In this document: one piece after another, positions 32,128 to 35,534 of the stretch
Numbering within the stretch: position 1 is the first letter of the stretch
How the letters are laid out: every line of letters starts with the position of its first letter
NCBI RefSeq assembly: GCF_044324785.1
Contig: NZ_CP172127.1
DNA length: 64,000 nucleotides
Direction: 5' to 3' (one strand)
DNA from: Escherichia coli
GTDB lineage: Bacteria; Pseudomonadota; Gammaproteobacteria; Enterobacterales; Enterobacteriaceae
Notes under the pieces: generated by a model
What the model saw: only the letters and a program-made list of their open reading frames with translations
Database searches by the model: none
What the model was told of the DNA's origin: nothing
Program-made: the position numbers and the translations under genes

Positions 32128-33252
32128 TCAGTTTGTTAACGGACAAATCATGACCCGTTCATCAATGTTTGCGGGTAGCTCGCCTGGCGTGGGAACGCGT
32201 TCACCCCGCTGAGCAGCCTGTGCCAGTGTGCGCAGCAAAAATACGCTGGCATGAGATATAGCCAGTTCCCGGGTTTCTGCACGGGTTTCAAGGTCGAAAT
32301 CGTGCAGTGTCACGACAAACAGCCCGTTTCTGCACCCGACAGTTGCAGGGTAGGGAACAAAATAAGGTGAAATTTTGCTGGTCTGTTTACGCCTTGCATC
32401 GAGTTTGCTGACCAGCTGATATGCCCGGAGATGCGTGTACCGTTTTAACATGTTCAGGGAGCGGTGGCCTGAAATAGCGGCAACTTCAATGACATTCAAT
32501 GTACCAAGTTCGAAAAATCGGCTGATGGCTTCATGACGGAGATCGTGAAAATGCAGATTTTCTATTTTCAGGTCCAGAAGTGCGGTACGCCAGGCGCTTT
32601 TGAAACCGGATGAGGTGTAACTGAACACATTGCCGTTTATCTGTTGTGGCAGAATTTGCAGGTAGTTGCGAGCTTTCCGGGAGAGTGGGACATCGCGTGG
32701 TAAACCATTTTTCGTTTCAGGAAGATGCGCCACTCCGTGCTGCAAATCGAGGTGTTCCCAGCGTAATGTGAGAATTTCCCCCTGTCGCATTGCTGTTTCC
32801 AGGGCCAGATGGAAGATAACGTAGAGCTGCTGATTTTTATCTCTGAAATAGCGGGAGAGTCGGCGTTCTTCGCCAGAAGTCAGGCGACGCTCTCGCCCAT
32901 TACTGATTTTGGGTTTTCGGACCAGTTCAACAGGATTCATACGGCATGTCCCCCATTCCACACGGGCGATATTGAATAATGATGATAAAAGAGCAAGTTC
33001 AAGACGGACGGTGTTTCCGGTGATTTGACGCCCAGTTCGTGGGTTAATTTGAGCCAAACGCTGATCCCGGTAACTGGCGATATCAACGGTCGTGATTTCA
33101 TCCATATAGCGATCGGCCACAGGGTGACGTTTAATCACATTGACGCGATAAACCTCCTGCAGATGCCCTTTTTTATGGACGGAAACGGTTTTCAGGTATT
33201 TGTCCAGCGCCCGGTTGAGAGTCATTTTGCGAATTTTGATTTTTCGAAACAT
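32128..33252 (-). CDS. rci: shufflon-specific tyrosine recombinase Rci
   Basis: high similarity as recalled to R64 Rci ([23 protein letters not shown]..., [27 protein letters not shown]); start placed at Met 62 bp beyond first sfx repeat; longer track ORF rejected. Confidence 0.8.
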
Positions 33253-33314
33253 ATCGGCCTTCCACGATAAAAACGGGGAAGGTAGGAATAGTGAAACGGA
33301 AATGCAATATCGCC

Positions 33315-33333
33315 GTGCCAATCCGGTGTGTGG
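33315..33333 (+). repeat. sfx 19-bp recombination site 1
   Basis: GTGCCAATCCGGTGTGTGG. Confidence 0.85.
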
Positions 33334-34042
33334 ATTGGCTTTGAATCCTACCCTGTGGGAAGCCCTATCCCATGGCCATCTGCCACTCCTCCACAAGGCT
33401 ATCTGTTGATGAACGGCCAGTCGTTTTCCTGTTCCCGGTATCCTCAGCTTGCCCGTGCTTATCCTGGCTGTAAATTGCCCGATCTGCGCGGTGTTTTTAT
33501 CCGTGGCTGGGATAACGGGAAGGGACTTGATGGTGATCGGAACAGACAACTCCTGAGTTATCAGGCCGATCAATCAGGCGTCTATCACGAACGTGGCGGA
33601 TGGCTGAAAGGGCATCATAGTGGTATGCCATACTGGGCACAGGGGAGTACCACAGAAATGCGTCCCAAAAATATTGCATTCAACTACATTGTTAAAGCCA
33701 GCTAGGGACTCACATCTGATAGGCATACACAGAGAAAACACCGTTACCACAGGCGTAATTTTGTGTTGGTCTGGAGATGATTTGATATGACGCTCCCACT
33801 GGCACGGCAAATGAAATAAATGCTGTCTTTCCGTAGGAGGGGTTATTGCTGGCATTCATACCAATGAAAGCGCCGTTCACATAGCCCTGAAGATTTGATG
33901 TGTTGGCGCAATCACCGCCACCGGCACCATTTCCACCGGAAGCGTACACAAACAAAGTTCCTCTGCCGTTATTTCTCCCGTTAAATGTTCCCCGGTGAGA
34001 ACCCAGATTGCTGTAACTTCCGTCAGGTGCACCAATCGTTCG

Positions 34043-34061
34043 CCACACACCGGATTGGCAC
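34043..34061 (-). repeat. sfx 19-bp recombination site 2
   Basis: reverse complement of GTGCCAATCCGGTGTGTGG. Confidence 0.85.
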
Positions 34062-34069
34062 GGAGGCCA

Positions 34070-34088
34070 GTGCCAATCCGGTTTGTGG
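34070..34088 (+). repeat. sfx 19-bp recombination site 3
   Basis: GTGCCAATCCGGTTTGTGG. Confidence 0.85.
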
Positions 34089-34331
34089 CTTGGAGGCAAT
34101 AAAGTGAACTATTCTGCCTGTAAATGGTATGAAGCGACCTCCGCACATTTTATCGGTGGCAGAAGCGGAGGCTCTATTTATTACAAGCCGATTCAGTGCC
34201 CTGCCGGGTACGTCATGACAGGTACAAGAATGTACGGCATCGGAGATGGTGTTGATGAAGAGCACGTCGATGCTTACTGTTGCCCTTTTGGTTAGATTCC
34301 GAGGGCCGGTATTTAATTTTCTCCCGTTGGC

Positions 34332-35534
34332 TTATTTCTCACAGATTGCTATAGCCTGGAAACAACTCAGGGAGCCAGAGCCAGTAGCAATCCACCGATT
34401 GTTTTTGTAATCAGGGTAACTACCATCTGGTGAGTTGTATCCGTTATGGACCCACTGGGATAACCTGTAGCCGCCGGAGACCAACTTACTCCCCGATGGG
34501 CATACCGCGTAAGACGATGTCTGAAAGCACCCATTCCCGCCGGATACTGTGAAACGCTCTTTTTTGTCACTGTTTTGCCACACACCGGATTGGCACGAAA
34601 GTATTGCCCCTTTACTGTCGCGGCCTACAAGTCCGTCCGGTGAGCAGGAAGTACCTGCGGTGGCTGTTTTTTCCAGCTGTAAATACTCACCCGTGGAAAG
34701 ACGCCCCTCAGACCGGACAGTTCCACCACTGACTTTTCCTCCTTTGAGCTCTCCTTCGGTTGTGATCCCTTTGTTGTTAACAGCACGTATCCATTGGCTG
34801 TCCGTCATGGTGAAGCCGCCACCATTTGGATGTAACCAACGATTTGATGTGACATCGCCTGAAAATCTGGCGTTTTTACCACTGGCTTCATTGATATTGG
34901 TGATGCTGTTATTATTCATATCAATGCCAGTATGCATTCTGTTTAAATCGGGTCTTCCCTGAACGCTGTAGCGGTAAAGCCGATCGCTTTCCTCCAGATC
35001 TTTTCCAGCCATTCGCATGGCGATATGCCCCTTGTTGCAGGTAATCTGATAATTACTTCCCAGATCGGTCCAGCCGCCAAAGGCACCTGTAACGGAATTA
35101 TTCTGGAGCATAAAACCACCGAGTCCATTAATCTGGCCCGCTATGCGACGTAACCCATCTTCTTTAATATCCTGTCCTCCGGTTGTGCAGGTAAGTGCTT
35201 CCAGACGACCGGATAAATTATTTTTTCTGATACCGGTAATATAGCTGTGTCCAAAGGGGGAGCGGGAAAAACCGTTGTTCAGATATCCCTGCTGAATTAA
35301 TTCATTTACCGTGATGGTTTTACTGGAAAGTGAGCTGGTTTTATCAGCCACATAATTCTTTATTGCATTATTATATTCATCAGCATGTAAAGCCGCACTT
35401 TGATAAAGTTGTTCATTCAGCCAGTCTTCAATTTCTGAATAAATCATTGGCGTGGCGATACCAATTACTATCAGGCCTGCCAGAATTTCAAGCAGAATAA
35501 AACCTTTATCGTCATCGTGTCTGAATTTTTTCAC
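34332..35534 (-). CDS. pilV: type IVB thin-pilus minor pilin/adhesin PilV (constant N-region plus currently joined variable C-segment)
   Basis: 400 aa; prepilin-like N-terminus GFILLEILAGLIVIGIA; sfx repeat in-frame near C-terminus. Confidence 0.8.
   Translation of the reverse strand: MKKFRHDDDKGFILLEILAGLIVIGIATPMIYSEIEDWLNEQLYQSAALHADEYNNAIKNYVADKTSSLSSKTITVNELIQQGYLNNGFSRSPFGHSYITGIRKNNLSGRLEALTCTTGGQDIKEDGLRRIAGQINGLGGFMLQNNSVTGAFGGWTDLGSNYQITCNKGHIAMRMAGKDLEESDRLYRYSVQGRPDLNRMHTGIDMNNNSITNINEASGKNARFSGDVTSNRWLHPNGGGFTMTDSQWIRAVNNKGITTEGELKGGKVSGGTVRSEGRLSTGEYLQLEKTATAGTSCSPDGLVGRDSKGAILSCQSGVWQNSDKKERFTVSGGNGCFQTSSYAVCPSGSKLVSGGYRLSQWVHNGYNSPDGSYPDYKNNRWIATGSGSLSCFQAIAICEK
34578..34596 (-). 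repeat. sfx 19-bp recombination site 4 (inside pilV)
   Basis: reverse complement of GTGCCAATCCGGTGTGTGG; encodes CQSGVW in PilV. Confidence 0.85.

Follow-up and report, generated by a model that had tools for sequence, protein, structure and literature searches.

A chromosomal R64-type shufflon with four alternative PilV C-termini on a conjugative element at pheV in Escherichia coli

The window analysed here, a stretch of 64,000 nucleotides of Escherichia coli DNA (contig NZ_CP172127.1 of assembly GCF_044324785.1), carries an integrative conjugative element (ICE) of the ICEEc2/SPI-7/PAGI-2 type (pKLC102), inserted at the 3′ end of the tRNA-Phe gene pheV. The end module of the element (45495..49948) comprises, on the + strand, a UvrD-like helicase (45495-47003), a PFGI-1-class TraI relaxase (46933-48525; TIGR03760, scoring 193 bits where the cut-off is 161) and a tyrosine-type integrase (48556-49668), the last of these next to tRNA-Phe pheV (49873-49948, - strand). 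Then come yqgA, speC, nupG and mltC, a gene order that bears out the pheV location given by the initial annotation. MPF_G mating-pair (TIGR037xx) genes are present, and positions 1-10370 are 97.5-99.5% identical to a stretch of GF60 annotated with TIGR03749/52/51/57/56, a conjugative ATPase and TraG. The tRNA-Phe 3′ end is not repeated anywhere in the window, as it would be at the far att site, and the ICE runs beyond the window start. Excision and conjugative transfer have been reported for related pheV/pheU ICEs.

Within this element, rci (32128..33252, - strand; open reading frame with the PGAP start of the identical GF60 copy) encodes an intact shufflon-specific tyrosine recombinase of 374 aa, with a GGAAGG motif 5 nt upstream of the ATG. 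Position 32128, at which the initial annotation had its finding begin, is the end of the rci stop codon. The product shares 75% identity with R64 Rci (residues 6-372 of 374), extra C-terminal domain included. It matches Pfam Phage_integrase (E=1.4e-22) and keeps the RHR-Y motif regions (AMRQGE, HDLRHE, GHRS and KRYTHL), while NCBIfam returned sub-threshold Xer-type matches only. Directly behind rci, also on the - strand, lie traF and a traE-like gene (29790..31915), both of IncI-complex (MPF_I) plasmid type; they are stranded within an MPF_G ICE, and the rci-traE-traF side is plasmid-like.

Between rci and pilV stand four copies of a 19-bp sfx repeat, GTGCCAATCCGGT[G/T]TGTGG, in the orientation +,-,+,-. 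A search with the pattern GTGCCAATCCGGTKTGTGG, allowing up to 3 mismatches, found exactly these four, each with 0 mismatches, against a chance expectation of 0.03 (none of 100 shuffles reached four), and an independent repeat finder recovered the same inverted pairs. Site 1, proximal to rci (33315..33333, +), consists of the 7-bp core GTGCCAA and the 12-bp right arm TCCGGTGTGTGG. It is followed by site 2 (34043..34061, -), an 8-bp spacer (GGAGGCCA, 34062..34069) and, back to back with site 2, site 3 (34070..34088, +), which is a T variant (TCCGGTTTGTGG); at the pilV-proximal site 4 (34578..34596, -), the pilV constant region ends in the left arm ggggcaatactttc. The initial annotation had thus placed the repeats, their alternating orientation and their 8-bp gap correctly to the base. 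Its reading of them as C-Q-S-G-(V/L)-W likewise stands on translation of all four, with G-L-W at site 3 (GGT TTG TGG) and G-V-W at the other three. The sites are asymmetric, GTGCCAA and TCCGGT(G/T)TGTGG being constant while the left arms differ. Such a conserved 7-bp core with a 12-bp right arm and a non-conserved left arm is the described form of sfx, and it is this asymmetry that limits Rci to inversions.

The inverted sites delimit two contiguous segments, with the right arms pointing inwards, and each segment carries two convergent cassettes, one per strand. In S1 (709 bp, 33334..34042), the + strand cassette runs from 33316 to a stop at 33705 (129 aa counted from Cys) and the - strand cassette from 34060 to a stop at 33710 (116 aa). 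In S2 (489 bp, 34089..34577), the + strand cassette runs from 34071 to a stop at 34295 (74 aa) and the - strand cassette, now fused to pilV, from 34595 to a stop at 34332 (87 aa). As had been proposed, a different open frame follows each repeat; since all four are in frame with the pilV constant region, they provide four alternative PilV C-termini. The S1(+) cassette is of the tail-collar type: the PilV variant fused to it matches Pfam Collar (PF07484, E=3e-12), and its C-terminus alone matches PHROG tail-fibre families with E down to 2e-41, in keeping with the tail-fibre-like character first assigned to the + strand segment from 33315. The S1(-) cassette is R64 'A'-like and shares 67% identity with the variant that is joined to pilV in the R64 record NC_005014; for the S2(+) cassette, identity to an R64 cassette is 83%. 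NCBIfam assigned no family to PilV or the four cassettes.

In its present form, pilV (34332..35534, - strand, 400 aa) joins a constant region (34597-35534) to a variable tail (34332-34596). The constant region matches Pfam Shufflon_N (PF04917) and has the prepilin-type motif KG|FILLE at its N-terminus; it is 36% identical to that of R64 PilV, and the identity climbs sharply near the sfx site. The rest of the type IVb operon, pilU-pilT-pilS-pilR-pilQ-pilP-pilO-pilN-pilM-pilL (35531..44697, - strand; open reading frames and the PGAP annotation of GF60), is uninterrupted, with every reading frame open. PilN scores above the TIGR02520 cut-off, and the pilus assembly ATPase matches the GspE family.

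This arrangement is that of R64 (IncI1), and the assignment to an R64-type shufflon with Rci is upheld by site architecture, by gene order (traF-traE-rci-shufflon-pilV...pilL in NC_005014) and by the Rci and cassette identities given above. The 7-bp core is identical, the right arm TCCGGTNNNTGG agrees with that of R64 (consensus GTGCCAATCCGGTNNNTGG), and back-to-back sites are likewise spaced by 8 bp of nearly the same sequence, as they also are in IncK2/Z plasmids. R64, the plasmids p69 and pTB-nb2, and the window all have an identical left arm next to pilV. The differences are nevertheless several. R64 has seven sfx sites, segments A-D and seven PilV C-termini on a plasmid, whereas here two segments and four sites lie on a chromosomal ICE; the variable triplet of the right arm is GTG or TTG (Val/Leu) here but ACC, CGG, ACT or ACG (Thr/Arg) in R64; R64 has nothing that corresponds to the tail-collar cassette; and the PilV constant regions are far apart.

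On this model, Rci would pair two sfx sites in inverted orientation and exchange strands within the core, inverting the DNA between them. S1, S2 or both jointly would be the invertible units, so that eight arrangements could be reached. Whichever segment end adjoined site 4 would complete the pilV frame after C-Q-S-G-(V/L)-W, and each clone would therefore carry one of four PilV tips on its type IVb thin pilus.

Does the locus in fact invert? The island occurs at 99.2-100% identity in four other E. coli chromosomes, which carry the same two segments at 99.9-100% identity among the five islands. The arrangement is S1+S2+ in the window, S2+S1+ in GF60, S2-S1+ in TUM1886, S2+S1- in APEC E19035 and S1-S2- in CM2, with PilV lengths of 400, 429, 429, 442 and 387 aa, respectively. 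Five of the eight possible isomers are thus found in five near-identical islands of different strains; all four fusions are represented, and in the other genomes S1 is seen in both orientations and both positions. The T-variant site keeps to the same S2 end in every isomer, as it should where crossover takes place in the 7-bp core. A junction search of E. coli records also found each of the four pilV fusions, the S2(-) fusion of the window being the rare one (coverage of the junction query is 80% or more in just two records, of which a plasmid alone achieves this in one piece). Taken as a comparison of sequences, with one assembled state per strain, this is strong evidence for Rci inversion. 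Isomers that differ between strains prove that the lineage underwent inversion in the past, and do not prove that the switch is active now; that inversion continues in the window strain and that the locus is expressed there is what we infer. The suggestion that the shufflon is active is accordingly supported strongly, if indirectly, by the four other orders and orientations.

A frozen relic, in which the arrangements seen elsewhere are historical and the window locus has ceased to invert to any appreciable extent, would fit the single state shown by the window. It would also fit the promoter and terminator scan, which found no promoter-like match directly upstream of rci (and fewer sites than in shuffle controls). 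Shufflon locking does occur, since rci is frameshifted in one close relative, TUM1886. Here, however, rci is open and its DNA is 100% identical to the copy of APEC E19035, whose shufflon stands in a different isomer; all four sfx sites are perfect; and five isomers among islands less than 1% apart imply frequent switching. We therefore regard a relic as very unlikely, and hold that this is very probably a functional R64-type shufflon on an ICE of the ICEEc2/SPI-7/PAGI-2 family inserted at pheV.

Near-identical relatives of the variable block occur on plasmids. From site 1 to about 34814, it is at least 99.5% identical to IncK2/Z (I-complex) plasmids, while its flanks diverge; examples are Shigella sonnei p69 (NZ_CP099769.1) and E. 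coli pTB-nb2 (NZ_CP033633.1), with S1 at 99.5-99.7% identity. Divergence from these two plasmids falls more than ten-fold exactly at site 1, from about 5% in rci to 0.3-0.5% in S1, and climbs again about 220 bp into pilV. A sharp boundary at the shufflon on both sides, which was considered, proved wrong, as the right-hand one falls within the constant part of pilV, near 34815, and not at site 4. The traF-traE-rci stretch is 98.2% identical to p69; against pTB-nb2, the pilV constant region has 1 mismatch over its 3′-terminal 218 bp and the pil genes are 93% identical. Both plasmids, in contrast to the ICE, in which only traE and traF remain of MPF_I, have a complete MPF_I transfer system, and they carry other segment sets that lack the S2(-) cassette. 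The identity pattern suggests recent exchange between plasmid and ICE. It is conceivable, though we think it unlikely, that the block serves as a cassette set which the chromosomal ICE exchanges with IncI-complex plasmids in the same cell, moved by Rci through sfx x sfx recombination between replicons; the resulting cointegrates would later undergo resolution or deletion, and could occasionally yield Hfr-like donors.

Could replacement of this block by recombination with co-resident IncI-complex plasmids, rather than inversion in situ, also explain the differences between strains? The plasmid identity of the block between divergent flanks would allow it, as would GF60, which has the ICE together with a plasmid whose pilV end is near-identical, and a three-segment version in EC17CM2. 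Yet the segments of the four compared islands are the same two throughout, with only their order and orientation varying, replacement would have brought plasmid polymorphisms along, and the constant pairing of the T-variant site with one segment end is a signature of core-site inversion. Replacement as the source of the isomers is thus extremely unlikely, and in situ inversion by Rci is the reading kept here.

Chromosomal relatives are known as well. SPI-7 of Salmonella Typhi, of the same ICE family, is inserted at a tRNA-Phe gene. Its type IVb pil operon has pilV as the last gene and is followed by rci with 19-bp inverted repeats, a chromosomal rci/pilV shufflon described about twenty years ago; it has one invertible segment, two repeats and two forms of PilV, against two segments, four forms and plasmid-like cassettes here. 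ICEEc2, of the pKLC102/PAGI-2 family and from the avian E. coli isolate BEN374, resembles the window element by its published description: it lies at a phe tRNA gene, its module comprises an integrase, a relaxase and a helicase, and it depends on a type IV pilus for transfer. In Pectobacterium brasiliense, a chromosomal PilV (PF04917) becomes fused to a tail collar (PF07484) by inversion (Milman et al. 2023); the S1(+) fusion is the same domain pair in a different genus, a likeness of domains, with the collar here one of four alternatives.

What the pilus tip does would follow from such relatives. By analogy with R64, IncI2 TP114, PAPI-1 and ICEEc2, the PilV tip would select the recipient surface (LPS) that is bound, and so which recipients the element may reach in liquid: PAPI-1 PilV recognises recipient LPS, IncI2 (TP114) PilV has a role in recipient recognition, and the ICEEc2 pilus serves mating-pair formation and is reported to be necessary for transfer. 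A real shufflon whose main output is adhesion or self-association rather than mating specificity is doubtful, but carries more weight than the alternatives above. In Typhi SPI-7, PilV variant and inversion rate control type IVb pilus aggregation and host-cell contact, tying the rci/pilV switch to self-association and adhesion (Tam et al. 2004); pili of the R64 PilVA type aggregate cells too, and many carriers are avian-pathogenic or extra-intestinal isolates. The ICEEc2 transfer requirement, recipient recognition by the PAPI-1 and IncI2 proteins, and cassettes at least 99.5% identical to those of conjugative IncK2/Z plasmids all weigh against it, and one role does not preclude the other. Recipient choice in mating remains the function that we favour.

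The view that a chromosomal shufflon at pheV is notable was overstated. Besides the SPI-7 precedent, E. coli chromosomes hold 144 matching places, full or partial, many of the carriers being avian-pathogenic or extra-intestinal isolates, and the listed pilV copies are already named shufflon PilV by PGAP. A full-text literature search for pheV together with pilV turned up a single paper, that on the E. coli W genome, where the locus concerned is on a plasmid without rci. The locus is a real but ordinary shufflon of known type, with near-identical copies annotated in many public genomes, and opens no new mechanism. For genome assembly it is a reminder that shufflons cause mis-assemblies. For the biology of E. 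coli, it means that phe-tRNA ICEs, which are frequent in isolates from poultry and extra-intestinal sites, share with the IncI-complex resistance plasmids a putative recipient-choice switch, with near-identical cassettes; and because such ICEs also mobilise chromosomal DNA, the locus is relevant to the prediction of ICE host range.

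A pattern search of the whole 64-kb window for GTGCCAATCCGGTKTGTGG, tolerating as many as three mismatches, returns exactly four 19-bp sfx sites, every one without a mismatch, against 0.03 in shuffled sequence; an unsupervised repeat search recovers the same inverted pairs. From the rci side to the pilV side these are sfx1 (33315-33333, +), sfx2 (34043-34061, −), sfx3 (34070-34088, +, a T variant) and sfx4 (34578-34596, −). This is the alternating orientation described in the initial annotation, which was also right in placing the second and third repeats just 8 bp apart (34062-34069). 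Read from its second base, each of the four sites encodes C-Q-S-G-(V/L)-W and then enters a different open frame, with stops at 33705 (+, from sfx1), 33710 (−, from sfx2), 34295 (+, from sfx3) and 34332 (−, from sfx4, the present tail of the pilV ORF), so that translation upholds the earlier description and its coordinates. The sites bound two invertible segments, S1 (33334-34042) and S2 (34089-34577), each made of two convergent cassettes, that is, alternative ORFs for the PilV C-terminus. The left arms of the outermost sites are also alike (33304-33314, gcaatatcgcc; 34597-34607, gcaatactttc), and with the sites included they make up an inverted repeat of 30 nt (87%). The arm on the rci side has the look of a leftover pilV constant-region end. 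The same aatgcaat... motif 5′ of the rci-proximal site is found in the IncK2/Z plasmids p69 (NZ_CP099769.1, Shigella sonnei) and pTB-nb2 (NZ_CP033633.1, E. coli) and in the E. coli chromosome EC17CM2 (NZ_CP190349.1), but not at that position in the IncI1 reference plasmid R64.

The recombinase gene rci, as had been proposed, lies next to these sites (32128-33252, −, 374 aa). The mechanical ORF extends further upstream than the ATG at 33252, which has a GGAAGG motif 5 nt on its 5′ side and is the PGAP start in the identical copy of another E. coli chromosome, GF60. The product is a tyrosine recombinase by Pfam, and has 75% identity to R64 Rci over residues 6-372, including the catalytic-motif regions and the C-terminal extension that sets shufflon invertases apart from Cre-like enzymes. 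In its present form pilV (34332-35534, −) encodes 400 aa, with a prepilin-type motif KG|FILLE at the N-terminus and a constant region matching Pfam Shufflon_N. Fusing PilV to the S1(+) cassette adds a phage tail Collar domain (Pfam, E=3e-12), and by itself this cassette matches phage tail-fibre PHROGs with E down to 2e-41, which bears out the tail-fibre likeness noticed earlier in the + strand segment from 33315. Upstream of pilV, every frame from pilU to pilL is open, and PilN scores above the cut-off of the type IVB secretin model.

By every sequence-level criterion, the locus is an R64-type shufflon. In R64 (NC_005014) the gene order is traF-traE-rci-shufflon-pilV...pilL, and its seven sfx sites read GTGCCAATCCGGTNNNTGG, differing from those of the window only at three variable right-arm bases. 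The 8-bp back-to-back spacing and the pilV-end left arm ggggcaatactttc are identical in both. The cassettes are less uniform: S1(−) has 67% identity to the cassette that is fused to pilV in NC_005014 and S2(+) 83% to another R64 cassette, whereas S2(−) is only distantly related (30%) and nothing in R64 corresponds to the collar cassette. The window carries two segments, compared with four in R64.

In such a system Rci would invert the DNA lying between inverted sfx sites, to inversions of which it is limited by sfx asymmetry. Megablast finds near-identical chromosomal copies among complete E. coli genomes, and S1 and S2 were mapped in four of these (flanks 99.2-100% identical, segments 99.9-100%). 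Written from rci to pilV, the window is S1+ S2+ (PilV of 400 aa), GF60 is S2+ S1+ (429 aa), TUM1886 is S2− S1+ (429 aa), APEC E19035 is S2+ S1− (442 aa) and CM2 is S1− S2− (387 aa). Inverting S1, S2 or the two together can give eight arrangements; five of them are found here, and all four PilV fusions are represented. In every isomer the T-variant right arm is found at one and the same end of S2, as expected if strand exchange occurs in the 7-bp core. The isomers, seen between strains, are comparative evidence for inversion, and as such cannot show present switching in the source strain. Individual lineages can lock, since in TUM1886 (NZ_CP128970.1, compared stretch 429-1552) rci is annotated as frameshifted within an otherwise near-identical island holding a different isomer; judged by this annotation, it is a naturally locked shufflon. 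Segment number is also variable among chromosomal copies, as seen from the larger shufflons of the sister ICEs of EC17CM2 and SCU-171 (the latter a 5.3-kb match): EC17CM2 (compared stretch 1616-3419) has three segments and six sfx sites, whose right arms include the extra variants TCCGGTATCTGG and TCCGGTTCGTGG. Four junction queries (150 bp of constant region, sfx and 150 bp of cassette) were counted in E. coli records at a query coverage of at least 80%, giving 271 records for the collar-cassette junction S1(+), 42 for S1(−), 35 for S2(+) and 2 for S2(−), the fusion in the window, with a single-piece match in only one of these two, a plasmid.

The island was said to sit at pheV, and so it does: tRNA-Phe lies at 49873-49948, and beyond it the collinear GF60 region has yqgA, speC, nupG and mltC, a setting that we take from the K-12 map to be the pheV locus. 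An integrase, a relaxase scoring above the cut-off of the PFGI-1-class ICE TraI model, and a UvrD-like helicase adjoin the tRNA. At the other end, window 1-10370 has 97.5-99.5% identity to a GF60 stretch whose annotation names ICE proteins of the TIGR037xx series together with TraG and a conjugative ATPase; GF60 continues to the left with TraD, topoisomerase III and Ssb. Given this integrase, relaxase and TIGR037xx-type region, gene content identifies the island as an ICE of the pKLC102/PAGI-2/SPI-7 family, to which ICEEc2 belongs. No second att copy was found across the window, so the element runs past it. In E. coli, ICEEc2-type elements are known to reside at pheV as well as at pheU, and to transfer. 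Cargo varies between ICEs that are otherwise 97-99% identical, since iha (siderophore receptor/adhesin) lies between the conjugative ATPase and TIGR03757 genes in GF60 (stretch 20492-22802) and is absent from the window's ICE (position ~5375-5469). An intact 169-aa ORF (18262-18771, +) takes the place of an ArdA antirestriction gene that is split in GF60 by an IS21-family insertion (istAB, ~2.6 kb) that the window lacks. ORFs of 971 and 678 aa (21413-26367, −), annotated in GF60 as a type III restriction-modification endonuclease and methyltransferase, are by that annotation defence cargo on the ICE. Stretches of ~120-430 bp recur within the element (14162-14661 and 16461-16778), with 92-98% identity to multiple sites of the GF60 ICE (~921-1239, ~34942-35378, and ~1861-2133 in another compared stretch).

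Window 29790-34814 is a mosaic with the IncK2/Z plasmids, from which its divergence is very uneven. The traF-traE-rci block has 98.2% identity to p69 against only 93-94% to pTB-nb2, while the remaining pil genes have 93% to pTB-nb2 and 72% to p69. Over its final 218 bp, the pilV constant region shows one difference from pTB-nb2, and pilV at ~34815-35110 is barely alignable with plasmid pilV. The last 600 bp before sfx1 carry 32-35 differences from each plasmid (rci being ~5% diverged), compared with 2-4 in the 747 bp of S1 (at least 99.5% identity to both), a more than ten-fold fall at sfx1. In GF60 the ICE coexists with a plasmid whose pilV end is near-identical. The simplest reading, suggested by this uneven divergence and its drop at sfx1, is that the pil-rci region recently recombined between the ICE and plasmids of the I-complex, with exchange of the shufflon block. 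Behind rci, traF and a traE-like gene (29790-31915, −) are IncI-type (MPF_I) components inside an MPF_G ICE, with no evident role there. On the plasmids, traF is succeeded by traH, traI, traJ and traK, whereas the window block stops at traF, next to what the annotation of GF60 shows as IS remnants and a fragment of an autotransporter.

A chromosomal shufflon is less notable than the initial annotation held. Chromosomal rci/pilV shufflons are described in SPI-7, a PilV-collar fusion under programmed inversion is described in a Pectobacterium chromosome, a survey counted 314 Rci-like loci in public sequence, and 144 places on E. coli chromosomes match, partial matches included. Prior knowledge thus covers the shufflon system, how it works and even the cassettes it carries. 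Our literature search, whose reach did not extend to the original ICEEc2 description, found no accessible paper dissecting the multi-segment shufflon of E. coli phe-tRNA ICEs.

What would such a switch serve? The segment end at sfx4 would complete pilV, so that each cell would show one of four PilV tips on its thin pilus. These tips may act in aggregation or adhesion, a role that is reported for S. Typhi SPI-7 and that is compatible with a role in mating. On the mating side, PilV adhesins give conjugation specificity in the gut for IncI2 TP114, recipient LPS is recognised by the type IVb pilus of PAPI-1, and the ICEEc2 pilus is reported to be active in mating-pair formation. In the light of these pilus roles, the PilV shufflon would most likely function as a recipient-range switch for the ICE.
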